DNA of 13,417 nucleotides from a virus (taxonomy: Duplodnaviria > Heunggongvirae > Uroviricota > Caudoviricetes), in the IMG/VR virus record IMGVR_UViG_2526164690_000043, positions 1-13,417 of that record. The stretch is one strand, 5' to 3'. Within the stretch, counting starts at the first letter, position 1. Every line of letters begins with the position of its first letter. The notes beneath the pieces were generated by a model that was not told the DNA's origin, searched no databases, and saw nothing but the letters and a program-made list of their open reading frames with translations. Position numbers and translations under genes: made by a program. Shown here in pieces: positions 1 to 13,417 of the stretch.

Positions 1-1230
1 ATGAGCAGAGCACTTAACAAACTGAGCGATACACAGCTGAGGAAAATCAACGGCACACCCGCCCAAAAAACAGCCTTTCTTAATGACGGTGGAAACCTGA
101 GCGTCAGGCATTCAACCAGCGGCCTTTTAACCTGGTATTTCACCTACAGGGCCGGAACGGGAAGGGGAGCACGACCGGAACGGATTAAGCTGGGAAATTA
201 TCCTGATCTGAGTCTGAAAGCTGCCAGGGAAAAAGCGGCACAGTGTCGCGCTTGGCTTGCTGAGGGGAAAAATCCACGTCATGAGATGAATTACACCGTA
301 CAGAAAGCGTTAAAGCCCGTAACGGTTGGCGATGCGCTTACCTACTGGCTTGAGTCTTACGTAAAGGAAAACCGCGTGGATTATGCCGCCCTGAAAAAGC
401 GCCTTAATAATCACGTAATACAGCACATTGGTGCTATGCCGCTGGATAAATGCGAGCTACGGCACTGGCTGGCCTGTTTTGACCAGGTGGCAAAGCGAAC
501 GCCTGTTACTGCCGGATTCTTGCTACAGACGTGCAAACAGGCGCTTAAGTTCTGCCGGAGGCGGCGCTATGCAATCAGCAACGTTCTTGATGATATGAGT
601 GTGGCGGACGTTGGGAAAAAACCGGATATAAGCGAGCGTGTCTTAAGCACCAAAGAACTTGGCGAATTATTGCAGGCACTGGACAAAAAAATATTTTCCC
701 CTTACTACGTCGCACTAATCCGCCTCCTGATTGTTTTTGGATGCCGGACGGTAGAACTGAGGTTATCGGAGATCAGCGAGTGGGATTTTACCGAAATGCT
801 CTGGACCGTGCCGAAAGAACACAGCAAAACGAAGGTGGCAATATTCCGGCCCATACCGGAAGCAATACTGCCGTTCGTCACGCAGCTGGTGGAGCAGAAC
901 AGGCACACGGGCTTATTGCTGGGGGAAGTGAAACAGGAAACAAGCGTGTCGCAGTACGGCAGATTAGCGCACAGGAGGCTAAAACACCCTCACTGGTCAC
1001 TGCATGACATCCGGCGCACCTTTACAACGATGCTGAACGATTTAGGCGTGGATCCTCACGTCGTGGAGCAGCTTACAGGTCATCAGATGCCAGGGATGCA
1101 ACGAGTCTATAACCATTCCCGTTATCTGGATGCGAAACGTGACGCGCTGGATATGTGGACGGAGCGGTTAGGGATACTGGCGGGAACACATGAAAACGTA
1201 ACCACATTGCCAATAGCCAGAGAAATATAA
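1..1230 (+). CDS. int: Tyrosine integrase, P4-like (N-terminal arm-binding DUF4102-type domain plus C-terminal catalytic domain)
   Basis: 409-aa ORF. The N-terminus (LSDTQLRK..DGGNLSVRHSTSGLLTWYFTYR..LGNYPDLSLKAAREKA) fits the P4-integrase arm-binding signature. Catalytic landmarks are GCRTVELRL (Arg), LHDIRRT (His-x-x-Arg) and VYNHSRY (Tyr). Confidence 0.95.
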   Translation: MSRALNKLSDTQLRKINGTPAQKTAFLNDGGNLSVRHSTSGLLTWYFTYRAGTGRGARPERIKLGNYPDLSLKAAREKAAQCRAWLAEGKNPRHEMNYTVQKALKPVTVGDALTYWLESYVKENRVDYAALKKRLNNHVIQHIGAMPLDKCELRHWLACFDQVAKRTPVTAGFLLQTCKQALKFCRRRRYAISNVLDDMSVADVGKKPDISERVLSTKELGELLQALDKKIFSPYYVALIRLLIVFGCRTVELRLSEISEWDFTEMLWTVPKEHSKTKVAIFRPIPEAILPFVTQLVEQNRHTGLLLGEVKQETSVSQYGRLAHRRLKHPHWSLHDIRRTFTTMLNDLGVDPHVVEQLTGHQMPGMQRVYNHSRYLDAKRDALDMWTERLGILAGTHENVTTLPIAREI

Positions 1231-1251
1231 TTTTTTTGCGATTTTTCAGGA

Positions 1252-1313
1252 TGCGGACAACGTGAAACAACGAGACACAACGACGAACAACAAGGAACAA
1301 AATGGAACAACGG
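1252..1313 (+). repeat. Array A: six tandem 10-bp units, each ending in (G)AACAAC (helically phased boxes)
   Basis: ACAAC at 1257-1261, 1267-1271, 1277-1281, 1287-1291 and 1307-1311, plus ACAAA at 1297-1301. The register is exactly 10 bp and the array begins about 20 bp after the int stop. Confidence 0.8.
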
Positions 1314-1512
1314 GTTAAAAATCAGCCATCGTAATAACCATTTGATTTTTATAGGTGTACTGTTTTTTTATACACTGGCGAATCACTCTTAAAAATATGT
1401 AAAAAAGGCGTAAAAGTAAAATTTTATGCCTTTGCATCATAATGAATTAAAAGAGTTTTTATTCTCATTCCCCCTGCTTCTGTAAAACGACCGCCGCCAG
1501 TGTTTGCCATTC

Positions 1513-1566
1513 CACAAACACCCTGACACAATCCGACACAACCCAACCCAATAATCCACCCAATGA
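1513..1566 (+). promoter_or_regulatory. CA-rich tract with 10-bp-spaced GACACAA(C) boxes just upstream of alpA (degenerate relative of array A)
   Basis: GACACAA at 1525-1531 and GACACAAC at 1535-1542, preceded by ACAAACA at 1514-1520 and followed by CCCAA repeats. It lies 30-80 bp upstream of the alpA start. Function unknown. Confidence 0.4.
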
Positions 1567-1594
1567 CTCTTTAAGAAACAACAAAGGGGGAATT

Positions 1595-1783
1595 GTGTTA
1601 AGCACAGATCGCTTTATACGTGAAAAAGAATGTCAGCAACTTACAGGCCTGAGCCGCTCATGTCGGTACCGCCTGGAAAAAGCCGGACAATTCCCATCAC
1701 GGCGTAAGCTGGGCGGTCGTTCCGTTGGCTGGTCTTTATCCGAAGTTCTGGCATGGAAGGACAGCTGCGAGGCAGTTCACTAA
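1595..1783 (+). CDS. alpA: AlpA-family (Vis/excisionase-like, HTH_17) phage regulatory protein
   Basis: 62-aa ORF with a GTG start preceded by AAAGGGGG. RFIREKECQQLTGLSRSCRYRLEKAGQFPSRRKLGGRSVGWSLSEVLAWK matches the AlpA pattern (TGLSrst.Y.l...G.FP.p.kLG.rsv.W...Ev..W). Confidence 0.9.
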   Translation: MLSTDRFIREKECQQLTGLSRSCRYRLEKAGQFPSRRKLGGRSVGWSLSEVLAWKDSCEAVH

Positions 1784-1835
1784 TCAGGCTGGCGGCACAC
1801 AGCCGCCACCCATCCACTAATACAGAGATCTAACC

Positions 1836-2738
1836 ATGAATACTGGATATTCTCCCGAACAAGGGCGGGGCTTCGTTCGTCCTGAAAAACAGAATCTGCA
1901 AAATTTTGCCGAAATTATTCCGGTTATTTCCGGCCTTACTGGCGGGAGTGAAACCAATATTGTTAACGCCAGAGCGTTGCAGATGTTTGATGATAAAAAG
2001 GGAGTAAATTTAACTTACACCCCTGACGGCAATCAGAATATGAGCATTATCTCTGAGTCAGGTTTCTACAAACTAATAAAAACAAAAAGCGCCCCGTTGC
2101 CGGAGCGCCTTTGTGAACAATTAACCTACTGCGCAAAAAATGAATCTGAGCAGTGGGATTATATCAACCATGTGGAGAAGCGCCACAATTGCCGAATAAC
2201 GGGCAAAACAAAGGCCACCCGCTACGGTGGCCCCTCGACACAAGCTACACGTTATCCCCAACGCATGAGCATTGCCAACAATGCCACATTTGCGGCTGGT
2301 GGGCAATGCAATCAGTCTGGTTCAGTTCGTTGCCATACCTGCAATGAGCGCTTTTCCCTGTACTCTTTAAGGAATTGCTCAAGGGCAAAAGCACATGGCG
2401 CGAATCTTTCTGATTCATGCTCTATCTTTCTGCGCCGTCTTTTCCGTGCCGGTGATAATGTTTTGGTCAATTCTTTATCGGTCATTGTGTTGTCCTGCAT
2501 AGCAATGCGCCGTAGTTACTCACACCACGGCGCTGGTGATGGTTACTCCTGCTCTTTGGCCTTGCGACGCTGGCGGCGTTTGATCTCACCTTTAACGGCA
2601 GTAACTATAAATTGCGCCTTGCTTTCACCTTCATCTAAATTTTTTCTAAGTCTGCAACAACATCATGCGGGAATCTGGCATTTAACTGTTGCGACTTATT
2701 ATTTGTTGAACCTGTTGCCATTACTGAATCCTCTCTAA
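1836..2738 (+). CDS. Hypothetical protein. Only the first ~100 codons look coding and the 3' ~600 nt of the ORF is probably an artefactual extension.
   Basis: The N-terminal part contains NMSIISESGFYKLIKTKSAP, reminiscent of the end of a Bro-N/antirepressor-type domain (weak). From ~2150 onward the translation is Cys/Ser/Arg/Leu-rich, as expected for an antisense frame. That part overlaps two better-supported minus-strand genes and their terminator. One extra A in the A6 run at 2135-2140 would give a stop (..CAKK*) at ~2144. Confidence 0.35.
   Translation: MNTGYSPEQGRGFVRPEKQNLQNFAEIIPVISGLTGGSETNIVNARALQMFDDKKGVNLTYTPDGNQNMSIISESGFYKLIKTKSAPLPERLCEQLTYCAKNESEQWDYINHVEKRHNCRITGKTKATRYGGPSTQATRYPQRMSIANNATFAAGGQCNQSGSVRCHTCNERFSLYSLRNCSRAKAHGANLSDSCSIFLRRLFRAGDNVLVNSLSVIVLSCIAMRRSYSHHGAGDGYSCSLALRRWRRLISPLTAVTINCALLSPSSKFFLSLQQHHAGIWHLTVATYYLLNLLPLLNPL
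2204..2232 (-). terminator. Rho-independent terminator of the minus-strand two-gene unit
   Basis: The minus strand reads GGCCACC-GTAGCG-GGTGGCC followed by TTTGTTTTG: a 7-bp GC-rich stem (2213-2219/2226-2232), a 6-nt loop and a T-tract. On the + strand no T-tract follows. Confidence 0.65.
2312..2485 (-). CDS. Small, highly basic hypothetical protein (57 aa from the second ATG)
   Basis: MTDKELTKTLSPARKRRRRKIEHESERF.. with AGGA 7 nt upstream of the ATG at 2485. It lies 57 nt downstream of the RHH gene on the same strand. The 3' end is uncertain, because a frame change near 2318 would extend it to a stop at 2245, just before the terminator. Confidence 0.45.
   Translation of the reverse strand: MTDKELTKTLSPARKRRRRKIEHESERFAPCAFALEQFLKEYREKRSLQVWQRTEPD
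2543..2721 (-). CDS. Ribbon-helix-helix (Arc/CopG/MetJ-like) DNA-binding protein, split by a 1-nt frameshift as given
   Basis: ATG at 2721 with AGAGGA 7 nt upstream. It reads MATGSTNNKSQQLNARFPHDVVADLEKI* (stop 2635-2637). The -1 frame continues LDEGESKAQFIVTAVKGEIKRRQRRKAKEQE* (stop 2543-2545). Joined, these give a typical ~59-aa RHH (beta strand QLNARFP, then two helices). The junction is the A6 run on the coding strand (T6 at 2640-2645). Confidence 0.65.
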
Positions 2739-2740
2739 GT

Positions 2741-2835
2741 TGGTGCGATTCAGTATACACAAAAAAAATTTCAGAGAAAGACTTGAAGTGCGATTCACTT
2801 ACTGATAGGTTAAAAACGAATGGTGCGATGCACCA
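2741..2835. promoter_or_regulatory. Divergent switch region: three operator-like copies of GTGCGAT(T/G)CA plus candidate divergent promoters
   Basis: TGGTGCGATTCAGTA at 2741-2755. AAGTGCGATTCACTT at 2786-2800 (AAGTG-N5-CACTT palindrome). TGGTGCGATGCACCA at 2821-2835 (TGGTGC-N3-GCACCA palindrome). Core starts are 45 and 35 bp apart. The candidate rightward promoter is TTGAAG (2783-2788), 17 bp, TAGGTT (2806-2811), overlapping copy 2. The candidate leftward -10 is TATACT (minus strand, 2752-2757), overlapping copy 1. Confidence 0.6.
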
Positions 2836-2911
2836 AACAACAACGCCCCGCAGTGGTGGCACACATGCAGGGCGTCTAACCACCAACGATAGCGAAAGTA
2901 TCGAGGTAGCT

Positions 2912-3112
2912 ATGAGAAATCATACCATACACCCGCAAGGGCGGGACTCGCACAACCTGAATAAATACATCTGGCGTTTTATCGCCCTGAGCACGGCACA
3001 ACCGCGCGTGATTACCATTGAGGCCACCAGCGAACAGGAAGCACGCCAGCAATCTCCGGCTGGCTGCGTGATGGTATTTGCTGCCCGTATTCGTCAGGGG
3101 GTAGGCTTATGA
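2912..3112 (+). CDS. Icd-like (host cell-division inhibitor-like) small protein, first gene of the rightward early operon
   Basis: 66 aa from the ATG at 2912 (GAGGT upstream). KYIWRFIALSTAQPRVITIEATSEQEARQQSPAGCVMVFAARIRQGV resembles the Icd-like family of P4-like islands (W.F.A....P.V....A.SE.EAR.......F.AAR). The track ORF starts at TTG 2783, which lies inside the operators. Confidence 0.6.
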   Translation: MRNHTIHPQGRDSHNLNKYIWRFIALSTAQPRVITIEATSEQEARQQSPAGCVMVFAARIRQGVGL

Positions 3113-3339
3113 GCCAGGAAATCACACTACAACAGGCAGCAGAACGCGCCCACCAAATCGAAGTTATTTGCGCACTGGCAGAGGATTACCCTGGCATGAT
3201 GACCGACAGCGAATCAGGGGCAATCATCGGCTTACTTAAACGCCTTAGCGGTGAGGTCTGCGTATTCCTGAGCGATGAACAGGAAAGAAGAACGCTTATT
3301 TCTAACGAAAAAAAATGCGGAGGGGTACATGTGCAATAA
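3109..3339 (+). CDS. Hypothetical protein (76 aa)
   Basis: ATGA start/stop overlap with the upstream gene and an acidic, helical composition. No family recognised. Confidence 0.55.
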   Translation: MSQEITLQQAAERAHQIEVICALAEDYPGMMTDSESGAIIGLLKRLSGEVCVFLSDEQERRTLISNEKKCGGVHVQ

Positions 3340-3553
3340 AACCACACCGGACGCAGCCGCCGCCGCGCTCACTACGCTGATGCACGCGCTTATTGATATT
3401 TCTGTTATTGCTGACAGGGCGCATAAACACGCAGCCAGAGAATCAGAATGCATCTTCCATTATTTAACATTTGTGCAGCTAAAAGCCGATCAGGCACTGG
3501 ATAAGGCCGGAAAAATTATCATGGCTGATGTGCAGGAGGTGCACCATGCATAA
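3329..3553 (+). CDS. Hypothetical protein (74 aa)
   Basis: ATG at 3329 preceded by GGAGGGG, so the internal start is preferred over the track start at 3275. No family recognised. Confidence 0.5.
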   Translation: MCNKTTPDAAAAALTTLMHALIDISVIADRAHKHAARESECIFHYLTFVQLKADQALDKAGKIIMADVQEVHHA

Positions 3554-3911
3554 CCTGTCAATTTCTGACCTTAACAGCATTCAGTTTGACGAGAAATTTA
3601 CCGGGCAGTTGCTGGTCAATGTGGAGAACGGGCGCATAGTGCGTAATTATCACCTGCCGGATGGTGCAATTGCCGGAAGCGTTGAAGCATTGCTGGAACT
3701 GGCGGAACGTGCGCGACTGATTAAGCCGTCAACGAGCCATCACGATGATGATCTGCATTTTACCGGATGTATGGTGAGTCACTACGAAAACGGCGTCGAG
3801 GTATCCTGCGAACGGCTGCGTGATGATTGCTGTTTCGGCACACTGCCGGAATTTATCGAGTTGCTGACCAGTTGCGGTTATCAGGTCATTCAGGGGGGTA
3901 AACATGCGTGA
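3546..3911 (+). CDS. Hypothetical protein (121 aa)
   Basis: ATG at 3546 preceded by AGGAGG, overlapping the upstream stop. No family recognised. Confidence 0.6.
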   Translation: MHNLSISDLNSIQFDEKFTGQLLVNVENGRIVRNYHLPDGAIAGSVEALLELAERARLIKPSTSHHDDDLHFTGCMVSHYENGVEVSCERLRDDCCFGTLPEFIELLTSCGYQVIQGGKHA

Positions 3912-4125
3912 TGATCGTTTTAATTCCCTGAAACAGGAATTTTCCGGCGTTCCTGATGATGCGGCTGATGCGCTTTCGTCAATATCTGAAATTATGCGGG
4001 TGGCTTTTTTCTTTCTTTGCACTGATGAGCACAGAGATACAGGGCTAAATATTCTTGATATTGCCGCTAACTATGCTGATTTCGTGACAGAAGCTGTTTT
4101 AAGAAAAACAACGGACGGGGATTAA
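3904..4125 (+). CDS. Hypothetical protein (73 aa)
   Basis: ATG at 3904 preceded by GGGGGT, with an 8-nt overlap of the upstream gene. No family recognised. Confidence 0.55.
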   Translation: MRDDRFNSLKQEFSGVPDDAADALSSISEIMRVAFFFLCTDEHRDTGLNILDIAANYADFVTEAVLRKTTDGD

Positions 4126-4126
4126 T

Positions 4127-4360
4127 ATGCGTGATATTTACCACGAAACAATAGACCGCGCATTTAGTGCCCTTGCTTACGCTGAAGGTATGTACGAAAT
4201 ATTGCGCATATGGCTTGAAACACTTGGCGACAATGAACGCGACAAACAAAAATCAAGAATTGTCACGGCATTAATAACGCTTCTTGAGCCTGTAATAATG
4301 GAACTGCAAGAAATAGATCTATTGCACGACAGATATAAAGAACAGCACACCGGAGAATAA
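4127..4360 (+). CDS. Hypothetical protein (77 aa)
   Basis: ATG one nt after the upstream stop, preceded by GGGGA. Helical composition. No family recognised. Confidence 0.55.
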   Translation: MRDIYHETIDRAFSALAYAEGMYEILRIWLETLGDNERDKQKSRIVTALITLLEPVIMELQEIDLLHDRYKEQHTGE

Positions 4361-4365
4361 AAATA

Positions 4366-4665
4366 ATGAAACTTAAATATTCTGGCTTAACTGCCAGTGG
4401 CAACACTCACCCTAAATTTACGCGCGGCGATATTTACCGCGACCAGTACGGCGGCACGGTAATGATTAAGGGCGTGGCGGGACGGTGCGTAACCTACCGC
4501 CGTGAAGGTTACGAATATGATTGCGTGATGCCTGTTTATCAGTTCCGGCGTGATTTTTCTCTGGTACAGACCGCGCCGCATAACGTGCCCACCAGCAACG
4601 CCAGGGCACGGGCAAACATCCAGAAGCTGAAAACCATGATTAACGGATTCAGGGGCAAGAAATGA
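4366..4665 (+). CDS. Hypothetical protein, possibly DUF4222-like
   Basis: GDIYRDQYGGTVMIKGVAGRCVTYRREGYEYDCVMPVYQFRRDFSLV resembles the small beta-rich DUF4222 pattern seen in enterobacterial prophages. This rests on memory only. Confidence 0.45.
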   Translation: MKLKYSGLTASGNTHPKFTRGDIYRDQYGGTVMIKGVAGRCVTYRREGYEYDCVMPVYQFRRDFSLVQTAPHNVPTSNARARANIQKLKTMINGFRGKK

Positions 4666-6059
4666 AAAGCGCACCGAACTTAAAAAAACAGCCTTACGAC
4701 AAGATGACCGAAGTCATTATTTTTGCGGGTAGTGATGCCTGGGCACATGCGAAACAGTGGCAGGAACAGGACGGGCGACTGGCTGGCGATAATGTGCCTC
4801 CCGTTGTGCTGGCTGATGATCAACTGGATGAACTGGCAGACCTGAGAATCATCGACGAGGGGCGCTATTGTGTCCGGCTGTACAAGGCAGGCCACATCAG
4901 GCCATCAAATATTAATGCCATTGCGCACAAGCTGGCAGCGGCAGGTGTACAGGATGCGAATTACTACCCCGATGGGATGCACAGCCAGAAGCGGGAGAAC
5001 TGGCGCGAATATCTGGAACGGGAGCGCGGGGAAAAGCAGGAAGAAAAAGGCCACCAGCGCAAAACAAAGCTACCGATGAGCGTTGGTTCTGCCGGATATG
5101 ACACGCAACTGGATTACGTGGTTAAGGGGATTATTCCGGCGGTATCGCTTTGCAGCATATACGGGGCGAGCGGTTCCTATAAATCGTTCCTTGCGGGTTC
5201 GTGGGCGTGTCACGTTTCCACGGGCCGCCAGTGGGGAGGCCGCAGGGTGGCGCATGGCGCTGTTCTCTATGTGGTTGGTGAAGGCGGTATCGGCGTTCCG
5301 CGTCGTGTAAAAGCCTGGGAGGTTGTGCACGGTGAGCAGGTGAAAAATCTTTACCTTGTAAACCGTCCCATCTTTCCGGCTGCCCCGCTTGATGTTGATG
5401 AAATGGTTATCGCTGCCCGTCAGGTGGAGCGGGAAACGGGTAAACCTGTTCGAATGATTATTCTGGATACGCTGGCGCGCTGCTTTGGCGGCAATGATGA
5501 AAATGACTCCCGTGATATGGGGACGTTTATCCGTGGGTGTGACGAACTGAAACGACGCACAGGGGCCACGGTGCTGGTGGTTCACCATTCCGGCAAGGAT
5601 GAGACGAAAGGCGCGCGCGGTTCCAGTGCATTTCGTGCTTCGCTGGATGCTGAATACCGGATACGCAGGGAGGACGCAGGAAGCGAAGCGCTGGTTATCT
5701 CATGCACCAAAATGAAGGACGCGGAGGAACTCAAAGAAGCCGCATATGACTTACGCGTGGTGGAGCTTTTTACCGACGCTGACGGGGAGTTAATCACGTC
5801 GCTGGTGGTGGTGGATAAGCCGCGCCCTCCCGTTGAACTGGAGCGCATCGAGGAGGCAGGGAACAAGACGGAGAATCACGCCGCGCTATGGCAGTGCATC
5901 AGAACACGAACAGCACACGGGGAGGCGTGCACTATCGCCCTTCTCCGCGACGATATGAAAAAGCTGGGGTATGAGATGAAGCACTTCCGGCGCTGGCTGT
6001 ACAAGCTGGAAAATGATGGCGTAATCGTTATTGACGGTGATGACGTGCGCCCGCTGTAA
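4662..6059 (+). CDS. Replication initiator/helicase, RepA-like RecA-fold ATPase (AAA_25 type) with a C-terminal winged-helix-like tail
   Basis: 465 aa. Walker A is YGASGSYKS and Walker B is VRMIILDTLARC. VLVVHHSGKDETKGARGSSA is typical of RepA/DnaB-like AAA_25 proteins. ATGA-coupled to the upstream ORF, and the iteron array begins at its stop codon. Confidence 0.85.
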   Translation: MKSAPNLKKQPYDKMTEVIIFAGSDAWAHAKQWQEQDGRLAGDNVPPVVLADDQLDELADLRIIDEGRYCVRLYKAGHIRPSNINAIAHKLAAAGVQDANYYPDGMHSQKRENWREYLERERGEKQEEKGHQRKTKLPMSVGSAGYDTQLDYVVKGIIPAVSLCSIYGASGSYKSFLAGSWACHVSTGRQWGGRRVAHGAVLYVVGEGGIGVPRRVKAWEVVHGEQVKNLYLVNRPIFPAAPLDVDEMVIAARQVERETGKPVRMIILDTLARCFGGNDENDSRDMGTFIRGCDELKRRTGATVLVVHHSGKDETKGARGSSAFRASLDAEYRIRREDAGSEALVISCTKMKDAEELKEAAYDLRVVELFTDADGELITSLVVVDKPRPPVELERIEEAGNKTENHAALWQCIRTRTAHGEACTIALLRDDMKKLGYEMKHFRRWLYKLENDGVIVIDGDDVRPL

Positions 6060-6260
6060 AAAGTGGGGAGTAAAAGTGGGGAGAGTGGGGAATTTAACAA
6101 AATTGAAACATAATTACCCACTTTCCCACCTGTATATACCCAAAAAAGTGGGGAGTAAAAAATATATTGAAAAACATCACGTTAGAATCACAAAAAGAAG
6201 AGGTGGGGAGACGGTGGGTAATTTCAAAAAGTGGGGAGCAAAAGTGGGGAGTAGTGGGGA
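6059..6260. repeat. Iteron-type origin of replication (ori)
   Basis: Nine direct copies of RGTGGG(G/T)A start at 6062, 6075, 6084, 6147, 6202, 6213, 6230, 6243 and 6253. Two inverted copies lie at 6115-6122 and 6124-6130. A triple-iteron block (6059-6095) is repeated at 6227-6263. These flank AT-rich segments at 6092-6116 and 6155-6200. Confidence 0.8.
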
Positions 6261-6512
6261 ATGAACAGAAAAACCAGAGATAAGACAGCGCCAAAATATA
6301 AAGCGTTAGACATGACAGAGCTTTCCCTAAAGGTGGCAATCAGAACGATAGACCGACACGTAGGGGAAGGATACGCGAAGGAACATCCCGACCTGATAAG
6401 CGCATTCATGACCACAGCAGCGGCAAACTTTGCCACGCTGACAGAACGGGAGATTGCCGAAGCGGAACAGGTAACAACCATCAACGTTAAAACCGGAGAG
6501 GTGGAATCATGA
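6261..6512 (+). CDS. Hypothetical protein (83 aa; alternative start at 6312)
   Basis: The ATG follows the last iteron directly, and GGGGA could act as the SD. The gene is coupled (ATGA) to the next ORF. No family recognised. Confidence 0.5.
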   Translation: MNRKTRDKTAPKYKALDMTELSLKVAIRTIDRHVGEGYAKEHPDLISAFMTTAAANFATLTEREIAEAEQVTTINVKTGEVES

Positions 6513-6814
6513 GCGAACCAAAATTTGGTGAAAAACTTTACAAGCACAACGGACGGATCACGATTCAGCAAATAAGCGCAGCTACACCAGGCTGGTGGGT
6601 TGAAACAGACGAAGGATCATCACCCGTGGCATCATGGGCGCTTTGTGTGCTTAGTTACCCTGACCGCGATGTGTATCAGGATATTCTGCCTGTGATATCC
6701 ACTGACAAAGGCATGAAACCCGTAGACATCAAAAACATGGGTTTTCAGTGCGTAATGCTCACTGAAAAAATGATGGAAGAGATGAAAAAGAACAACGCCG
6801 GATCGCTTCACTGA
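6509..6814 (+). CDS. Hypothetical protein (101 aa)
   Basis: ATGA overlap with the upstream ORF and a plausible globular composition. No family recognised. Confidence 0.55.
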   Translation: MSEPKFGEKLYKHNGRITIQQISAATPGWWVETDEGSSPVASWALCVLSYPDRDVYQDILPVISTDKGMKPVDIKNMGFQCVMLTEKMMEEMKKNNAGSLH

Positions 6815-6823
6815 GGTGGCAAT

Positions 6824-7234
6824 ATGACAGCACAAATTGCAGCTTACGGGCGCCTGGTGGACGACCCGCTGGTAAAACAGAGCAGCAAGGGCACACCGAT
6901 GACTCTGGCGCGTATGGCGGTATCGTTGCCATGCAGCCAGGCACATGACGGACAGGCGACGTTATGGTTATCGGTTATCGCATTTGGCAAACAGGCCGAT
7001 TTCCTGGCTAAACATCAAAAAGGCGATGTTGCCAGCGTATCCGGCACGATGCAGGTAAGCCAGTGGACCGGACAGAACGGGGAAACACGGCAGGGGTATC
7101 AGGTTATTGCAGACAGCGTAATCAGTGCCCGTGCGGCACGTCCTGGCGGGAACAGACGCAAAACCACAGGCACACAGGGTAATCAGCCACCAGCGGGAGG
7201 CGATGACCCTTACGGTGATGATATTCCGTTCTGA
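6824..7234 (+). CDS. ssb: Single-stranded DNA-binding protein
   Basis: 136 aa. The OB-fold N-terminus (GRLVDDPLVKQSSKGTPMTLARMAV..WLSVIAFGKQADFLAKHQKGDVASVSGTMQVSQW) is followed by a Gly/Pro/Gln-rich linker and the canonical acidic tip DDIPF at the C-terminus. Confidence 0.9.
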   Translation: MTAQIAAYGRLVDDPLVKQSSKGTPMTLARMAVSLPCSQAHDGQATLWLSVIAFGKQADFLAKHQKGDVASVSGTMQVSQWTGQNGETRQGYQVIADSVISARAARPGGNRRKTTGTQGNQPPAGGDDPYGDDIPF

Positions 7235-7246
7235 GGGGTGGGGACG

Positions 7247-7519
7247 ATGGTACATGACCGCATAGCGGAAGAGCTGGAGGCGAAAGGCTTTTACCGGAGA
7301 GCGTCGGCGCGATGGGGTGAAGTCATGCAGCTGGTGGAGACAGACAAGGAACGGCATCACATCACGATGCGACGGCTGGAATGTTGCAGGAAGGCACAGA
7401 GGCCACCGGAGCCACCGGATAATTACGGAGACCTGAAAAAGGCAGTCGATCGCACTTATGCCGAAATGGGGATAGATGGTGCTGGTGATGAAATATGGCG
7501 CAATTACCAGGACAGCTAA
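7247..7519 (+). CDS. PerC-family transcriptional regulator-like protein
   Basis: MVHDRIAEELEAKGFYRRASARWGEVM matches the PerC/Pch N-terminal signature (A..LE..G.[WY]RRA..RW.EVM). About 90 aa, as is typical. The track start is GTG 7238, but ATG 7247 is preferred. Confidence 0.6.
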   Translation: MVHDRIAEELEAKGFYRRASARWGEVMQLVETDKERHHITMRRLECCRKAQRPPEPPDNYGDLKKAVDRTYAEMGIDGAGDEIWRNYQDS

Positions 7520-7525
7520 TCACAC

Positions 7526-7549
7526 AGCCGGAGAAATCCGGCTTTTTTT
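7526..7549 (+). terminator. Rho-independent terminator T1
   Basis: AGCCGGA-GAAA-TCCGGCT followed by a T-run through 7549, starting 7 nt after the perC-like stop. Confidence 0.8.
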
Positions 7550-7644
7550 GCACCAGTTGAAACGGTATGGCGCATTACCGGGTTTTCGTCACGGTCTGGC
7601 ATAGTTACTATCTGAAACAAACAGACACAACAGAGGAAAAAACA

Positions 7645-7986
7645 ATGCCGATGAAATTTGATGAGATATTAAAACAGCGTGATAAATACCATGCTGACAA
7701 CATGGAGACGATGAGCATCAATGATTACCGCGCATTCCTGGAGACGGGCGCACTGATTGAAAAGGATCAGCATGGTTTTGTGAGATGTGCTCTATCCGGT
7801 GAAATGCTGGCGGTAAATCCTGAACAGATAGATGCATTGATAGAATTTCTGAAAGGGATCAGGACTGAGCACGCATACAGCCGGAGCAATCCGGTCTTTT
7901 TGTCATTTTTTGTAAATTATTTGTTCGTGGTTGTTCCACGTTGTTCACTGACAGGATCGGCATATTTTACCCGAACTGAATCATGA
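7645..7986 (+). CDS. Hypothetical protein; 3' end doubtful because the ORF reads through a terminator-like hairpin
   Basis: ATG at 7645 preceded by AGAGGA. MPMKFDEILKQRDKYHADNMETMSINDYRAFLETGALIEKDQHGFVRCALSGEMLAVNPEQIDALIEFLKG looks coding. The tail (..FLSFFVNYLFVVVPRCSL..) crosses hairpin T2 and repeat array B. One extra G in the G3 run at 7855-7857 would end the protein as ..FLKGDQD* just before T2. Confidence 0.45.
   Translation: MPMKFDEILKQRDKYHADNMETMSINDYRAFLETGALIEKDQHGFVRCALSGEMLAVNPEQIDALIEFLKGIRTEHAYSRSNPVFLSFFVNYLFVVVPRCSLTGSAYFTRTES
7879..7901 (+). terminator. Terminator-like hairpin T2, a near-copy of T1
   Basis: CAGCCGGAGCAATCCGGTCTTTTTG compared with T1 CAGCCGGAGAAATCCGGCTTTTTTTG. 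The stem is shorter (GCCGGA/TCCGGT with a G-U pair) and is followed by CTTTTTGTCATTTTTTG. Confidence 0.5.
7917..7950 (-). repeat. Array B: three 10-bp-phased GAACAA(C) boxes, inverted relative to array A
   Basis: On the + strand, TTGTTC sits at 7921-7926, 7931-7936 and 7941-7946. The minus strand reads GTGAACAACGTGGAACAACCACGAACAAATAA, the same unit and register as 1252-1313. Confidence 0.75.
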
Positions 7987-8022
7987 GTATTCTCGCCCGT
8001 GGTGCCAGGACGCTGGGGCCAC

Positions 8023-8070
8023 TTTCCCGCCTGTTAATGTGCTCGCCAATATTCATTACCAGGCGGGAAA
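8023..8070 (+). promoter_or_regulatory. Perfect 11-bp inverted repeat in the leader of the head operon
   Basis: TTTCCCGCCTG (8023-8033) and CAGGCGGGAAA (8060-8070) are separated by 26 nt. No T-tract follows on either strand, so this is an RNA stem-loop or a protein-binding palindrome rather than a terminator. Confidence 0.55.
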
Positions 8071-8123
8071 ACGATCGGTGCGATTGCTGATTTCCTTATG
8101 AAAAACGGTTGAGTGTTTGCCGC

Positions 8124-8160
8124 GTCCTGGAGTTCCTTACTTAACCCCAGGACTTTTTTT
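8124..8160 (+). terminator. Intrinsic terminator-like hairpin abutting the capsid start codon
   Basis: GTCCTGG (8124-8130) pairs with CCAGGAC (8147-8153), and 8132-8134/8143-8145 can extend the stem. T7 (8154-8160) follows, then ATG at 8161. The only SD-like element for the capsid gene (AGGA, 8149-8152) lies in the 3' arm of the stem. Confidence 0.65.
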
Positions 8161-9318
8161 ATGCCGAGAATAATCGAATTACGCCAGCAGAAAACCGCCA
8201 TTAAAAATCAGATGCGCGACATGCTGGAGAACGCGGAAAAAGAAAACCGCAGTCTTAACGATGCTGAGGGCGCAAAATTTGACGAATTACGCGCTAAAGC
8301 TGAATCCCTCGATAAAGACATTTCCCGCCTTGAAGCCATTGCAGACGAAGAGCGCAGCAAGCCAGGTAAAAGCAGTCAGACCACTGACCCCGCAGAACTA
8401 CGCAACTACATTCTGACAGGTGAAACCCGCGCATTAAGTACAGGCGTTCCCGCTGATGGTGGTTATACCGTTATCCCTGAACTGAACACCGAAATCATGC
8501 GAATGCTGGCGGATGAATCCACCATGCGCCGCATCTGTACCGTGAAGAAAATCAGCAGCAACGAGTTTAAGCAGCTTGTTTCCGCTGGCGGTGCGACCGT
8601 TAACCACGGTGAAGAGGGTAAGGCACGCGAACAGACCAGCCCCCCGCAGATTAACGAGGTGAGCATTAAGCTGTATCCGGTCTATGCGTACCCGCGCACC
8701 ACACAGGAAATCGTGGATTTTTCCGATGTGGACATCCTTTCATGGCTGACGGGTGAGATTGGCGACACCTTCACGGAAACCGAAGAAAGCGATCTGGTTG
8801 TGGGCGACGGTGACAAAAAAGCAAAAGGTTTTTTATCCGTACCCCGTGCAGAGAAGAACGACAAAGAGCGTGATTTTGGTACGTTGCAGGTAATTAAACC
8901 TTCCGAATCTCTGGCGTGGACATCTGCGGACCCGCTGATCGACCTGAAATTTGCATTACGTAAAAATAACCGCAAAAACGCGGTCTGGGTGGTTAACTCC
9001 ACGACGGCGGCAAAACTTCAGAAGGTGAAGAACGCGAACGGTGATTATATCTGGCGCGACCGTTTACAGGCGGGTGATCCTGATACGTTGCTGGGCCTTC
9101 CGGTCGAATATCTGGAGTTTATGCCTGATAACGTTATTGCCCTGGGTGACTTCAAACGCGGTTACTACATTGTTGATCACGAAACAGGTGTTCGCACCAG
9201 ACCGGACAACCTCACAGAGCCGGGCTTCATCAAAATTTTCACGCAGAAATATTTAGGCGGTGGCGTGGTGGATTCGAACGCGATCAAGATTCTGGAACTG
9301 CCACAGGACGACGATTAA
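8161..9318 (+). CDS. Major capsid protein, HK97 fold/family, with an N-terminal coiled-coil delta (scaffolding) domain
   Basis: 385 aa from the ATG at 8161 (the track ORF starts at GTG 8113, inside the leader). The N-terminus IELRQQKTAIKNQMRDMLENAEKENRSLNDAEGAKFDELRAKAESLDKDISRLEAIADEER is typical of HK97-family delta domains. The body carries family-like stretches such as GGYTVIPELNTEIMRML and ..NAVWVVNSTTAAKLQKVKNANGDYIWRD..LLGLPVEY. Confidence 0.92.
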   Translation: MPRIIELRQQKTAIKNQMRDMLENAEKENRSLNDAEGAKFDELRAKAESLDKDISRLEAIADEERSKPGKSSQTTDPAELRNYILTGETRALSTGVPADGGYTVIPELNTEIMRMLADESTMRRICTVKKISSNEFKQLVSAGGATVNHGEEGKAREQTSPPQINEVSIKLYPVYAYPRTTQEIVDFSDVDILSWLTGEIGDTFTETEESDLVVGDGDKKAKGFLSVPRAEKNDKERDFGTLQVIKPSESLAWTSADPLIDLKFALRKNNRKNAVWVVNSTTAAKLQKVKNANGDYIWRDRLQAGDPDTLLGLPVEYLEFMPDNVIALGDFKRGYYIVDHETGVRTRPDNLTEPGFIKIFTQKYLGGGVVDSNAIKILELPQDDD

Positions 9319-9328
9319 CAGCATACAG

Positions 9329-9348
9329 AAGGGGCTTAAAAGCCCCTT
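9329..9348 (+). other. Stem-loop between the capsid and protease genes
   Basis: AAGGGGCT-TAAA-AGCCCCTT, followed by TAGTGTTTTAT (a weak T-tract). It may act as a partial terminator or mRNA-stabilising hairpin that raises capsid output relative to downstream genes. Confidence 0.5.
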
Positions 9349-9380
9349 TAGTGTTTTATGGGTGAAAAATTATGAAGAGT

Positions 9381-9930
9381 ATGGAAATCCGGTCATACGG
9401 AAATCACCACCAGCGCCAGCAACACGCTGACAGGCTACGTTGTTCGCTGGGATAAGCTTTCAGAGCTGCTATGGGGGGAGTTTTACGAAAAATTCCAGCG
9501 GGGAGCGTTTACTGAATGGCTTGCGGCGGGTAATGACGTTCGCGGCCTGTATGAGCATGACCACAGCATGTTGCTGGGGCGTACCCGTTCCGGCACGCTG
9601 AAACTGGAAGAGGACGAAACAGGGTTACGCTTTGAACTGACCCCACCGGATACCAGCACAGGGCGGGACGTTATCGAACTGGTTAAACGTGGTGATATAT
9701 CCGGCATGAGCTTTGGCTTTCGTTCCCGTAAGGATGTATGGGATACCACAACAGATCCATGCGTGCGCACCGTGCTGGTTGCGGAACTGTACGAAATTAC
9801 CGTCACATCCGTACCGGCTTACCCTGATTCCGGCGTGGAGCTGGCCCGCCGCTCCCTGTACGAGCAGCACCCCGAAAAAATGCCGCGTGCGGATAATCGC
9901 CGCTGGTGGGCGGATTTAGCGGGGGTGTGA
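9381..9930 (+). CDS. Prohead (capsid maturation) serine protease, HK97 gp4 family, frameshifted near codon 7 as given
   Basis: ATG 9381 gives MEIRSYG, then runs out of frame to a stop at 9450-9452. The frame opening at 9400 reads EITTSASNTLTGYVVRWDKLSELLWGEFYEKFQRGAFTEWLAAGNDVRGLYEHDHSMLLGRTRSGTLKLEEDETGLRFEL..RGDISGMSFGF.., which carries the family His (EHDH) and Ser (GMSFGF) motifs. The track ORF 9568-9930 covers only the distal part. The junction is at GG 9399-9400. Confidence 0.85.
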
Positions 9931-9931
9931 T

Positions 9932-11146
9932 ATGTGGCCTTTTCAGAAGAAAAAAAAGAGCAGCGCTAGCATGACGCTTGATGAGTTTATGGCGCTGGCT
10001 GGCACATCGAACACGGGGGCGGGTGAGTACGTATCATCGGGGACAGCGGAATCACTGCCCGCCGTCATGAACGCCGTCACGGTCATCTCTGAGGCGGTGG
10101 CTACCATGCCGTGTTACCTGTACCTGGTACGCAATGAGAAGGGGAAGGAGGCCCGAGAGTGGCTTGATTCTCATCCGGTCGATCACATCCTCAACGAGCG
10201 CCCGAACGCATGGCAAACCCCCTACCAGTTTAAGCGAATGATGATCCGCCACTGCCTGTTAAACGGTAATGCTTATGCGGTGATTCAGTGGGGGCGTGAT
10301 GGTTTTCCGGTGGCTTTACATCCTTACCCGCCGCAGTCGGTGAACGTTGAGCAGACAGGTGAGCATAACTGGCGCTACTGCATCACTGACGCCTACACCG
10401 GAAACACCCGCAACTATTTACCGTGGGAGGTTCTCCACCTTCGTTACTCCACGGATGACGGTTTTATGGGGCGCTCACCTGTAACCATCTGCCGCGAATC
10501 GCTGGGGCTTGGGCTGGCCCAACAACGCCACGGCGCGAGCGTGATGCGTGATGGCATGATGGCGGCAGGGGTTATCACGTCAGGCGAATGGCTGGACGGC
10601 GTGAAGGGCAAACAGGCATTAGCCGCACTGGAACGCTACAAAGGGGCCAGAAACGCCGGAAAAACGCCCATCCTTGAAGGGGGTATGAGCTATCAGCAGC
10701 TGGGCATGAGTAATCAGGATGCTGAATGGCTGGCCTCCCGTCGCTTCACCATTGAAGACATCGCCCGAATGTTCAACGTCTCGCCGATTTTTCTGCAGGA
10801 ATACAGCAACAGCACCTATAGCAATTTCAGCGAGGCAAGCCGCGCATTTCTCACCATGACGATGCGCCCGTGGCTGGCGAACTTTGAGCAGCAGATAAAA
10901 AACGCCCTGCTGGTGGCCTCGCCTGTACCTGGTATCCGGTATCAGGTGGAGTTTGTACAGCGCGGACCTGTTACGGGCCACACCTGGCGAACGCTTTGCC
11001 ACCTATGAACGCGGCATCAAATCCGGCGTTATGTGCCCGAACGAAGCCCGCGAACGTGAAGGGCTGTCCCGCGTGATGGTGGTGATGAGTTCAGCCAGGC
11101 ATGGAAACAGGAAGTAAAAATCAGCGAGGGAGAAAAACCGGAATGA
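9932..11146 (+). CDS. Portal protein, HK97 family, with two compensating frameshifts in the 3' end as given
   Basis: ORF 9932-11008 (358 aa) has portal-like content (..HPVDHILNERPNAWQTPYQFKRMMIRHCLLNGNAYAVI.., ..FTIEDIARMFNVSPIFLQEY..). The conserved C-terminus is readable only by moving to another frame from ~10953 (LYSADLLRATPGERFATYERGIKSGVMCPNEAREREGLS) and back at ~11070 (..DGGDEFSQAWKQEVKISEGEKPE*, stop 11144-11146). That stop overlaps the next gene's ATG in an ATGA. Confidence 0.88.
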
Positions 11147-11481
11147 ACATAGGGCGACTGCGTGACAGGGTAACGATTCAGACCCTGAAACAGACCAGGG
11201 ATATAACCGGCGAAATACTCGAAACGTGGGTGGACGGTCACACACTCTGGGCAAGCGTGAACATGATCAGCAGCAAGGAGGCCATTTCATCGGGTGCAGA
11301 ACTGGCGACTGGAACGGTAAGGATATGGATACGCTACAGGAAGGACATCAACGCCACCAGCCGGATAAAGGTCAATACGGGGCCGCTGGCGGGGCGTGTA
11401 CTGAATATCATCGGGCAACCGCTGCCGGATGCCGCCAGGACACGCCTTGAAATTCTTTGTCGTGAGGGCGCGGAAAAATGA
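11143..11481 (+). CDS. Head-closure / head-tail joining protein (Phage_H_T_join, SPP1 gp16-like)
   Basis: MNIGRLRDRVTIQ...ETWVDGHTLWASVNMISSKEAISSG...VRIWIRYRKDINATSRIKV...LEILCRE matches the family pattern (L..RV.I......W......WA.v...s..E........i.IRYR.di....RI.....l.l.C.E). The track start at 11101 is replaced by ATG 11143, which is ATGA-coupled to the portal gene. Confidence 0.85.
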   Translation: MNIGRLRDRVTIQTLKQTRDITGEILETWVDGHTLWASVNMISSKEAISSGAELATGTVRIWIRYRKDINATSRIKVNTGPLAGRVLNIIGQPLPDAARTRLEILCREGAEK

Positions 11482-11774
11482 CAGAAGAACTTATCACCCT
11501 GGAAGAAGTGAAACTCCATTGCCGCATCGATGGCGACGAGGAAGACCAGTTAATCAGCGGATACATTGCCGCATCGCTTGAGGCGTGCCAGATACATATA
11601 GGCAGGCGCTTTGATGACGGGCTGGAGTTCACGCCGGCCATAAAGATTGGCTGCATGATGTTTATCGCTCACCTGTACGAGAATCGCCAGCTGGTAGCGG
11701 ATAACGCAAAAACACGCGTACCCATGACGATAGGCGCACTCTGGACGGCTTACCGTGATGTGGGGGTGTACTGA
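11478..11774 (+). CDS. gp6-like head-tail connector (adaptor) protein (Phage_connect_1)
   Basis: LITLEEVKLHCRIDGDEEDQLISGYIAASLEACQIHIGRRF....IAHLYENRQ matches the gp6-like signature (l.evK.hlRid.d.eD.li..li.aA......y.gr......lva.lYenR). ATGA-coupled upstream. Confidence 0.85.
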   Translation: MTEELITLEEVKLHCRIDGDEEDQLISGYIAASLEACQIHIGRRFDDGLEFTPAIKIGCMMFIAHLYENRQLVADNAKTRVPMTIGALWTAYRDVGVY

Positions 11775-12213
11775 TGCCGTGGCAACCATTAAGACGATGT
11801 ACAGAACCAGGCTGTAACAGGCGCGTTAAGTCCGGCAAGTGTGAGGAGCACAGGCGGGCGGCATGGCGTGCAGAGGATGCCAGACGAGGACACCGCCGCG
11901 CGCGTGGGTACTCCAGACAGTGGGAAAAATACCGCGCCATGTATCTGAGTAAAACCCGTTATGCGTGCGATGCCTTGAGAAGGGGATATATACGCCCGCC
12001 GTGGTGGTGGATCACATTATCCCGATTAATGGCGGTGATGATGTTCTCTTCTGGCCCGAATGGAACCATCAGCCATTGTGCCAGGCGTGTCATAACCAGA
12101 AAACGAAGTGGCTTGATCCGGCAACAAAAAGCAAGCGTGCCGCAGGTGGATTTCGTGAAGAGGAAGAACGGGCCGCTAACCGCAATAACTGGATGTATGA
12201 CGCTGATGAATGA
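11774..12213 (+). CDS. HNH endonuclease (HK97 gp74-like packaging accessory nuclease), frameshifted as given
   Basis: The N-terminal part (11774 onward) reads MPWQPLRRCTEPGCNRRVKSGKCEEHRR...RGYSRQWEKYRAMYLSK. The core, in the -1 frame (open from 11953; track ORF 11965-12213), reads NPLCVRCLEKGIYTPAVVVDHIIPINGGDDVLFWPEWNHQPLCQACHNQKT (H-N-H motif). The junction is the A4 run at 11951-11954, and A5 would fuse the two as ..YLSKNPLCVRC... Confidence 0.85.
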
Positions 12214-12379
12214 GCGGGAACAAAACCGCCTTATCCGTGGACTTATAAGGCAGCGTGACGCATGGAAGACACAGGAAACAGGGCATAAAGATAAAGCGTC
12301 AGGACGCGCAGAACGCATCACAGCGAAGCGATTAACCGACCGTGACCGCGAGGTTATGGAATGTTTCCGCAATCGCTGA
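12197..12379 (+). CDS. Possible small charged protein (57-60 aa) between HNH and the cos/terS region
   Basis: This is the distal part of track ORF 11774-12379, which becomes an independent ORF once the HNH frame is corrected. ATGs at 12197 and 12206 overlap the HNH stop. It reads NEREQNRLIRGLIRQRDAWKTQETGHKDKASGRAERITAKRLTDRDREVMECFRNR. No family recognised. Confidence 0.35.
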   Translation: MTLMNEREQNRLIRGLIRQRDAWKTQETGHKDKASGRAERITAKRLTDRDREVMECFRNR

Positions 12380-12501
12380 TGAGGCTGTATGACGGGGTGG
12401 GGGGCGTTTTCAGGACAAACCCGACCCCGCCGGGCACCGAACGCCTCCTCAAATTTTTATGCACGGGAATTTTTTGAAAAATAATCTGGCGAAAAATAAG
12501 C
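12380..12501. other. Candidate cos / terminase recognition region
   Basis: This is the only sizeable non-coding gap in the packaging module, and it lies just upstream of terS, as in HNH-dependent HK97-like cos phages. A G-rich block ACGGGGTGGGGGGCG (12392-12406) faces a C-rich block CCCGACCCCGCCGGG (12420-12434). Phased A/T tracts follow (AAATTTTTAT, AATTTTTTGAAAAATAAT; 12451-12485). Confidence 0.45.
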
Positions 12502-12858
12502 ATGGCAAGACCACCGAAAGCCCCCGCCTACCTGAATGACATCGCCGTGAAGCAGTGGCGGGAAAAATCGCGGCAGCTTGCGGAACGGGGAGACCTTACC
12601 CCCGCCGACTGGAGTAATCTGGAACTGTATTGCGTCAATTACTCGATATACCGGAAAGCCGTCGCAGACCTTGCGGCGCGCGGGTTCAGCATTGTTAACA
12701 GTCAGGGTGGCGAGAGCAGAAACCCCGCATTAAGCGCAAAATCCGACGCTGAAAGAGTGATGATAAAAATGGCCTCCTTGCTCGGTTTTGACCCGATAAG
12801 CCGCCGTAAAAATCCACCGGAAACAGAAGAAGAGGACGAGCTTGACCGCCTGGAATAA
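12502..12858 (+). CDS. terS: Terminase small subunit, P27 family
   Basis: PKAPAYLNDIAVKQWREKSRQLAERGDLTPADWSNLELYCVNYSIYRKAVADLAARGFSIVNSQGGESRNPALSAKSDAERVMIKMASLLGFDPISRRK follows the P27-family TerS pattern (P..L...a...W..l...l...g.l...D...l..yc......r.a...l...G.......g....nPa........l......efGltP.sR.k). Confidence 0.9.
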   Translation: MARPPKAPAYLNDIAVKQWREKSRQLAERGDLTPADWSNLELYCVNYSIYRKAVADLAARGFSIVNSQGGESRNPALSAKSDAERVMIKMASLLGFDPISRRKNPPETEEEDELDRLE

Positions 12859-13417
12859 GTACGCAGAAGACGTAAAAACGGGCAAAATTCCGGCCTGTAA
12901 ACGGCTGAAACAGGCCGTTAAACGGTACTTTTCGGACCTTGAAAGCCCCCTTTACACGTTCGATCGTGAGGTTGTGGAGCGGTTTATTGCCTTTTCCAGG
13001 GTGTGCCCGCACGTAAAAGGGCCGATGCGTGGCAGACCCATTGAGCTGGAGCCGTGGCAGCAGTTCGCCTTTGCGTGCATCCTCGGCTTTAAGGTTAAGG
13101 CCACCGGACGGCGCAAATACACGAGCGCCTTTATCGAAGTGCCGCGCAAAAATGCGAAATCCACGACCGCCGCGATTCTGGCTAACTGGTTTCTGATTAT
13201 GGAGAACGGTCAGCAGGATATCTACACCGCAGCGGTGAGCCGTGACCAGGCGCGGATCGTCTTTGATGATGCGCGTCAGATGTGCCTTTTATCCCGACCG
13301 TTACGCAGGCGGGTGAATATTCAGGCGCATAAGGTGATACACCCGAAAAGCAACAGCCTGTTAAAGCCGCTGGCAGCAAAAGCGGCAACCATCGAGGGAA
13401 CAAACCCCAGCCTTTCC
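12842..13417 (+). CDS. terL: Terminase large subunit (Terminase_1-like ATPase domain), 5' partial, running off the window
   Basis: The frame is open from 12800 to the window end and is absent from the track because it has no stop. The likely TTG start at 12842 has GAGGA 5 nt upstream and overlaps the terS end. It reads TAWNKYAEDVKTGKIPACKRLKQAVKRYFSDL..HVKGPMRGRPIELEPWQQFAFACILGF..IEVPRKNAKSTTAA (Walker A-like PRKNxKS)..IYTAAVSRDQARIVFDDA. Confidence 0.9.
   Translation, partial: MTAWNKYAEDVKTGKIPACKRLKQAVKRYFSDLESPLYTFDREVVERFIAFSRVCPHVKGPMRGRPIELEPWQQFAFACILGFKVKATGRRKYTSAFIEVPRKNAKSTTAAILANWFLIMENGQQDIYTAAVSRDQARIVFDDARQMCLLSRPLRRRVNIQAHKVIHPKSNSLLKPLAAKAATIEGTNPSLS

Follow-up and report, generated by a model that had tools for sequence, protein, structure and literature searches.

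Which protein reads the six evenly spaced boxes that lie between the integrase gene int and the regulatory gene alpA of a phage-inducible chromosomal island (PICI), and what purpose do they serve there? The boxes, referred to here as the distal array, are located at positions 1257-1311 of a stretch of 13,417 nucleotides (the window; positions 1 to 13,417 of the IMG/VR virus record IMGVR_UViG_2526164690_000043), which is a capsid-forming PICI (cf-PICI) with its main genes all on the + strand. AlpA is the master switch of the PICIs of Gram-negative bacteria, and these islands spread virulence and anti-phage defence genes. Judged by comparison with related islands, the distal array is under selection that acts on 4-bp cores and on their register, not on the spacers. 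We lean modestly towards the winged-helix protein AlpA as the binder of these phased sites, where it would serve both as excision factor and as autoregulator. The features on which the argument turns are the following:

1-1230, + strand: int, encoding a P4-type tyrosine integrase with an N-terminal arm-DNA-binding domain (Pfam Arm-DNA-bind_3, 9.5e-19; Phage_integrase, 5.4e-17)
1231-1256: T-rich spacer from the int stop codon to the array, near-invariant in 7 and in 41 related sequences
1257-1311, + strand: distal array, with an ACAA(C/A) box exactly every 10 bp, six in all; the minus strand reads as GTTGTTYC-type boxes, including TTGTTTCACGTTGT
1595-1783, + strand: alpA, encoding a 62-aa AlpA-family winged-helix protein with a GTG start (Pfam Phage_AlpA PF05930, 3e-18)

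Six boxes in exact 10-bp register follow int

The first box lies 27 bp beyond the int stop codon (1228-1230), and ACAAC begins at 1257, 1267, 1277, 1287 and 1307, with ACAAA at 1297. These positions confirm the exact coordinates of the six 10-bp units that an earlier, sequence-only reading of the stretch had placed at 1257-1311. Tandem Repeats Finder assigns a period of 10 to the array, and in a scan of periods 6-15 the ACAA chain exceeds three units at period 10 only. When the window was simulated 5000 times under a second-order Markov model, period-10 ACAA chains on either strand reached at most one unit in 3879 cases, two in 1116 and three in 5, and never six, which bears out the earlier claim that so exact a register is very unlikely by chance. 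The distal array has six head-to-tail repeats, each one helical turn from the next, where three or more are expected of a phased direct-repeat array of the Xis, Cox or Apl kind.

Cores and register are kept while spacers drift

Positions 1150-1700 are matched at 100% in E. coli O103 RM8385 by a chromosomal island that has roxA and phoQ on its two sides, the Int (WP_000085269.1) and AlpA (WP_000953274.1) of which are the same RefSeq proteins as those in CFT073, at the same site. The CFT073 island is EcCICFT073, the prototype Gram-negative PICI. Int and AlpA encoded in the window are identical to its Int and AlpA, and its int-alpA intergenic region differs from that of the window at 2 positions in about 365 nt. 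The region is found in 859 of 5426 complete E. coli genomes, with 75-100% identity. A blastn search of 1198-1652 against GenBank phages gave no match, and a scan of genome contigs for AlpA yielded three loci only, two of them distant (Geobacter and an alphaproteobacterial metagenome-assembled genome) and uninformative.

In seven islands, occupying four different chromosomal insertion sites, the ACAA cores are invariant and the spacers drift. A further 80 loci were recovered with Int and, together with the earlier loci, provide 54 loci of AlpA type 1 with 41 distinct intergenic sequences, which constitute the conservation set. Within this set, column identity is 0.994 for ACAA and 0.779 elsewhere in the array (Mann-Whitney p = 1.5e-7), and five to six unbroken exact-register ACAA units are present in all but four sequences; these four exhibit three units by exact match, or four to five when every box in the same register is counted. 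One locus (L055) has gained a unit through an exact +10 bp insertion. In 39 of the 41 distinct sequences, 196-199 bp separate the last box from the -35 hexamer of the predicted alpA promoter, and the spacing between array and promoter thus stays constant to within a few bp among diverged islands. The distal array therefore combines conserved cores, drifting spacers and a kept register. The alignment of related islands that had been proposed as a check accordingly comes out in its favor, with boxes and register kept at about 75% intergenic identity, and the reading of the boxes as a conserved set, phased with the helix and similar to the targets of small winged-helix recombination-directionality and regulatory proteins, is supported.

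The array lies within the AlpA-activated alpA promoter fragment

AlpA supplied from pBAD activates an alpA promoter-lacZ fusion in DH5alpha, which contains no island, Int or helper phage (PMC6092414). Mapping of the primers places the insert of the PalpA-lacZ plasmid pJP2038 at window positions 1198-1652, with the distal array included. The array is the sole repeated element under evident selection in this fragment, and the earlier proposal that it is an AlpA-linked control element of alpA gains from its location within an AlpA-activated sequence (PMC6092414). The remainder of the fragment contains the following:

1312-1480: AT-rich stretch separating the distal array from the promoter, with numerous runs of A and of T and a GC content of 0.22-0.32 in 60-bp windows
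1404-1433, + strand: stable hairpin (-16.6 kcal/mol; z = -5.6 on the + strand, z = -4.2 on the minus strand)
1504-1532, + strand: predicted alpA promoter, TTGCCA, 17 nt, CACAAT, with TG upstream
1525-1552, + strand: proximal CA-rich repeat, GACACAA twice and then CCAAT, overlapping the -10 hexamer and the predicted transcription start

TTGCCA-17-CACAAT is the sole sigma-70-like, consensus-like promoter in 1100-1900, and TTGCCA-17-(C/A)ACAAT is kept in all 41 distinct relatives. The sequence-only reading had also noted a second, more degenerate set of boxes at this position. GACACAA is indeed present at 1525-1531 and 1535-1541, but as a two-copy repeat only (Tandem Repeats Finder score 35) and not as a conserved phased array: the ACAAT of the first copy is the predicted -10 hexamer, and 17 of the 41 relatives have ACAT or GCAC in place of the second copy. 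Because of this overlap and this loss, we reject the pair as a second array and assign it to the promoter and a CA-rich leader. The hairpin at 1404-1433 has A6 to its left and TTTG to its right, with T6 after it on the minus strand, and its stem is kept via G-C, G-U and A-U changes that favor + strand RNA; it is probably an int terminator, or an insulator that shields alpA from int transcription.

A separate hairpin, TACCCTCAC...GTGAGGGT, which is absent from the window, is conserved just upstream of alpA in other cf-PICI families (L171, L174, L196, L200, L203 and L213). There, the alpA ribosome-binding site resides in the 3' arm, which suggests translational control of alpA in those families.

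The same boxes recur at both att arms and before the capsid operon

When full islands are scanned, up to four arrays of these boxes emerge in each. Since the window runs from the int ATG to a point inside the large terminase gene, neither att arm is contained in it. In addition to the distal array, which by position is the post-int array, the sister arrays are:

Outside the window, 55-90 bp upstream of the int ATG: attL array, four units
Outside the window: attR array, three units
7900-7946, + strand: pre-capsid array, TTGT at 7900, 7910, 7921, 7931 and 7941 (spacing 10, 11, 10, 10)

The first part of the five-unit pre-capsid array reads TTTGTAAATTATTTGT, and its last three boxes are TTGTTC, including TTGTTCCACGTTGT. 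All four arrays have TTGTTYCACGTTGT in common; at 0-2 mismatches this sequence occurs in the window only in the two arrays, and at up to 3 mismatches there are 11 hits against 2.8 expected. The attL, pre-capsid and attR arrays carry TTGT on the + strand and the post-int array carries ACAA, that is, inverted. With three of the four arrays opposite in orientation, the common feature is therefore one of double-stranded DNA. EcCICFT073, which is not capsid-forming, has the attL, post-int and attR arrays.

In five islands (L001, L234, L093, L094 and L095), the att-arm arrays adjoin doubled 12-mers that are likely Int arm-type sites (see below). The boxes of the sister arrays thus stand within an att arm beside such sites, as would be expected for a recombination directionality factor (RDF); the distal array itself is internal. 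The pre-capsid array is present in E. coli-type cf-PICI loci for which upstream sequence is available (capsid 97-99% identical) and has diverged in L141 (capsid 68% identical). A search for promoter consensus sequences near the attL and pre-capsid arrays gave no match.

AlpA as the candidate binder

Several observations converge on AlpA. Its overexpression leads to Int-dependent excision and replication of the island (PMC6092414), and in the PICMI satellites AlpA behaves as an excisionase (PMC10803314). AlpA of the window matches the 'AlpA family phage regulatory protein' of PDB 8c3t at 4.7e-10, which together with the Pfam hit settles its fold class, and it is a small winged-helix protein encoded in the element itself, as are cognate RDFs. 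In all four fully examined islands (L001, L093, L094 and L095), Int and AlpA are the sole recognisable sequence-specific DNA-binding proteins annotated.

The boxes also shift with the type of AlpA. Type-2 AlpA is about 58-60% identical to type 1, with the recognition helix VCRTTRYE versus LSRSCRYR, and the boxes are TTGTTCG in type-2 islands and TTGTTYC in type-1 islands, with G at box position 7 in 12/13 type-2 boxes versus 3/18 type-1 boxes (Fisher p = 4e-5). The int-alpA spacers of type-2 islands (L011, L068-L092) are without the ACAAC array; these islands contain a conserved array of three CGAAC boxes with 10-bp spacing, about 135 bp upstream of alpA.

Other observations weigh against AlpA. 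The shift of the boxes with AlpA type amounts to one event in evolution and agrees with the Int tree, the pre-capsid array of L094 remains in the style of type 1 in the presence of a type-2 AlpA, and TGTT-rich sequence persists beside the arm sites across very different AlpA types. After the int-proximal hairpin, type-2 islands carry two to three boxes with 10-bp spacing in which AATATCG and AAGTTCG are interchangeable. The distal array lies about 230-285 bp upstream of the predicted transcription start, which is far for contact with RNA polymerase. A Pint-lacZ fusion is unchanged by AlpA even though its fragment should contain the attL array (PMC6092414), and the suggestion that the boxes also control int expression is not supported by this published result. 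Moreover, the pre-capsid position of distant cf-PICIs is occupied by a TTTGTAAAT... element despite quite different AlpA types. Exact k-mer chain detection is too strict for these distant islands, and the element was found by reading the sequences; it is located upstream of the capsid gene in the pre-capsid regions of L135-L143 and L153-L229. Since TTTGTAAAT is shared across AlpA types, we assign the pre-capsid array to AlpA less confidently than the others, and the pattern of sequences would allow that this element may be a dedicated late-operon control site with a binder of its own. We also note that in some islands different 10-bp boxes follow TTTGTAAAT..., such as three copies of TACCC in L143 and L229.

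Other proteins as binders of the boxes

The alternative that fares best, although we consider it unlikely, is that a different protein binds the boxes: an Xis-type excisionase or alpA inducer of the helper phage, a host response regulator of the OmpR/PhoB/ArcA type (which use direct repeats of 10-11 bp), or another protein of the island. The pre-capsid sequence TGTAAATTATTTGTTC may resemble an ArcA direct repeat. A helper protein would suit the finding that helper phages induce alpA transcription independently of SOS (PMC6092414), by a factor that is not named in the literature searched, as well as the partial persistence of helper induction of alpA in EcCIMP1 when AlpA is absent (PMC11773190). 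Cross-talk between PICIs and helper excisionases has been published, the X1 site of lambda (TATGTTGTGTTTT) and one box of the array both contain GTTGTGT, and the retention of the pre-capsid TTTGTAAAT element across islands with very different AlpA types also speaks for another binder. However, AlpA alone activates 1198-1652 in a strain without phage or island, and L095 is without a PerC-like regulator yet has the att-arm arrays. A host factor is argued against by the difference in boxes between type-1 and type-2 islands of one host species.

A further arrangement, which we regard as improbable, is that the boxes form a platform shared by Xis-like winged-helix proteins, including the helper excisionase, which would switch on alpA and leave AlpA to amplify the response. 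If true, the SOS-independent helper signal (for example, on induction of lambda or phi80) would be excisionase cross-talk at the post-int array and possibly also at those of the att arms.

It is about as improbable that the distal array is not a protein site, and is rather an element in the 3' untranslated region of the int mRNA, intrinsically curved DNA or the inert relic of a duplicated att arm. Being positioned after the int stop codon and ahead of the hairpin that is probably the int terminator, the array is likely transcribed, and the presence of TTGTTYCACGTTGT in all arrays is consistent with an origin by duplication. Selection on 4-bp cores and register would, however, be unexpected of a relic, and the opposite orientation of the sister arrays also speaks against this explanation. 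An RNA element is rejected: shuffled sequences fold more strongly than the + strand RNA of the array (z = +2.1), and an Rfam scan of 1150-1700 gave no match.

Doubled 12-mers, not the boxes, are candidate integrase arm-type sites

The sequence-only reading had offered the arm-binding domain of Int as an alternative ligand of the boxes, and of the explanations weighed here this is the one to which we give least credence. In its favor, Int has an Arm-DNA-bind_3 domain, box arrays are found on both att arms and the arm-type sites P'1-P'3 of lambda are tandem sites about 10 bp apart. A different element is better placed for this role. Each att-arm array is adjoined by a doubled 12-mer (GGTGTAGTTAAT x2), which occurs nowhere else in the island (L001 13806-13829 and 29159-29182), and the putative att core GGACATATTT is located at L001 13671-13680 and 29257-29266, which puts the copies of the 12-mer at distances of about 80 bp (attR) and about 130 bp (attL) from the middle of the core.

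The 12-mer changes together with the beta-sheet residues of the Int N-terminal domain, and does so at both arms, 15 kb apart. Int with RHSTSGL is paired with GGTGTAGTTAAT (L001 and L234), KYLTSGK with GGTGTAGTCACT and GGTGTAGTCATT (L093) and KHSKGGK with GTGTGGTCAGTT (L094). It is independent of AlpA type, as L001 and L093 both have type 1, and L094 and L095 both type 2. Between islands with RHSTSGL-type and KYLTSGK-type Int, the ACAA arrays do not differ. As the 12-mer follows the Int N-domain and the boxes stay constant, the 12-mers, and not the boxes, are the candidates for Int arm sites: on these sequence comparisons, the doubled 12-mers are likely the best candidates for Int arm-type sites, and the doubled 12-mer is probably the arm-type site across this whole integrase clade.

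Thus, co-variation with Int across three Int types is a property of the 12-mer and not of the distal array, and the earlier alternative is not supported for the boxes. The spacing of the 12-mers from the core also matches that of a doubled motif in helper-embedded PICIs (HE-PICIs; PMC10111431), and AlpA activates 1198-1652 in the absence of Int. Arm-type sites are expected within about 150-200 bp of the core; the distal array lies about 1.45 kb from the attL core, and the pre-capsid array about 8 kb from the core.

Two further identities can be dismissed briefly. Replication-origin iterons are rejected, the distal array being 3.3 kb upstream of the helicase gene and separate AAAAGTGGGGAG repeats standing directly after that gene, and so is a loading site of the Pseudomonas aeruginosa AlpA binding element (ABE)/Q type, the array being 196-250 bp upstream of the -35 hexamer and GGGACG-N5-GGTA being absent from 1198-1652 as read.

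Comparison with known systems

Apl of phage 186 (PMC7498355) and Cox of P2 (PMC3936717) bind direct repeats that recur once per helical turn, both at att and in promoter regions (att and pR-pL for Apl; att, Pe-Pc and the P4 promoter PLL for Cox). As in the island studied here, the core is short and degenerate, there is an att-arm set as well as a regulatory set, and a small winged-helix protein is encoded in the element. Here, by contrast, the candidate protein is AlpA (PF05930), each att arm has an array, and the regulatory array does not overlap its proposed target promoter but precedes it by about 200-250 bp. A phased array for an RDF or regulator is a well-known kind of element. The literature searched contains neither a mapped AlpA operator of E. 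coli PICIs nor an account of the phased boxes.

The X1-X1.5-X2 sites of lambda Xis likewise follow one another head to tail, directly adjoin an Int arm-type site and stand at about 70-90 bp from the core, and X1 is T/G-rich with GTTGTGT, like the boxes here. The order at attL is arm sites, array, about 87 bp and core, compared with P2, X1-X1.5-X2, about 67 bp and core in lambda. The Xis sites differ in being restricted to one arm and in having no known promoter-activating role, whereas the distal array here is outside the att arm.

P4 Vis and the AlpA of E. coli CP4-57 belong to the same Pfam family and are linked to excision and transcription control in P4-like elements (PMC6092414). Gene order differs from that of the island here. 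In K-12, CP4-57 has a doubled 12-mer, TAGGCCCA.., beside intA (L235 2691-2714), and no 10-bp array was found near intA.

The attP of HE-PICIs contains a doubled tgTGTATTGCantgTGTATTGCa / TGTATTGC motif located 81 and 132 bp from the core (PMC10111431), and the TGTATTGC version is also present in L155 and L207. In position and geometry this motif is the same as the 12-mers here, and it is a different element from the distal array. That study reported the doubled motif as absent from other PICIs and left its binder open; phased ACAA/TTGT arrays are not described in it (PMC10111431).

The ABE of P. aeruginosa is a single GGGACG-N5-GGTA between the -35 and -10 hexamers, with a terminator after it, and serves in the loading of a Q-like antiterminator (PMC7969949). 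Its protein bears the same name as AlpA of the island, and the element is a cis site required for positive control (PMC7969949), but neither the motif nor its position is found here. A PDB profile search with an alignment of PICI AlpA proteins returned only 8c3t at a significant E-value, and no chain from an RNA polymerase-AlpA complex.

Downstream genes and repeats of the window

The genes and structures further along the window, of which the first hairpin abuts the pre-capsid array, are:

4662-6059, + strand: gene for a RepA-like helicase
7880-7895, + strand: terminator-like hairpin, the T run of which merges into the first pre-capsid boxes
8113-9318, + strand: capsid gene
9932-11008, + strand: portal gene

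The AAAAGTGGGGAG(T/C) repeats after the helicase gene occur as tandem pairs at 6059-6083 and 6227-6251 (L001 19910-20123), at intervals of about 85-169 bp, and are probably replication-origin iterons. Two near-identical terminator-like hairpins (AGCCGGAG.AATCCGGCT plus a T run), at 7526-7543 and 7880-7895 and thus 354 bp apart, bracket a small conserved open reading frame that closely precedes the capsid operon. A long inverted repeat, TTTCCCGCCTG ... CAGGCGGGAAA, at 8020-8075, is found in the leader that separates the capsid start codon from the pre-capsid array, and distant cf-PICIs have a different but equally structured capsid leader, GTCCACCCGG...CCGGGTGGAC.

A model for AlpA at the phased arrays

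On the reading that AlpA is the binder, we envisage that one AlpA monomer would bind per helical turn, on one face of the DNA, along the six boxes of the distal array. At the att arms, where the arrays lie beside the Int arm-type sites, AlpA would act as an RDF and direct excision. The positive autoregulation already known for alpA would operate through the post-int array, which precedes the -35 hexamer of that gene by about 196-250 bp. A helper signal would start the production of low amounts of AlpA, which would then fill the six boxes cooperatively, and the resulting bent AlpA filament could raise the activity of PalpA from a distance, either by bending or looping or by opening or remodelling the AT-rich stretch; in Shewanella CP4So, H-NS is documented to silence alpA promoters (PMC5148205). 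The outcome would be the reported switch-like positive feedback. In capsid-forming islands, a fourth AlpA array would stand in front of the capsid operon.

Published work disagrees on AlpA, which is described as a transcription activator in EcCICFT073 and as an excisionase in PICMI. If the present reading is true, ACAA(C)/TTGTTYC arrays at the att arms, at alpA and at the capsid operon would reconcile both roles. Probable Int arm sites (the 12-mers) are now separated from probable RDF sites, and the boxes provide exact sequences to mutate in existing reporter plasmids as well as a concrete place to seek the helper-phage signal that turns the island on. The dual role of AlpA and its induction by helper phages would thereby become directly testable on existing constructs.

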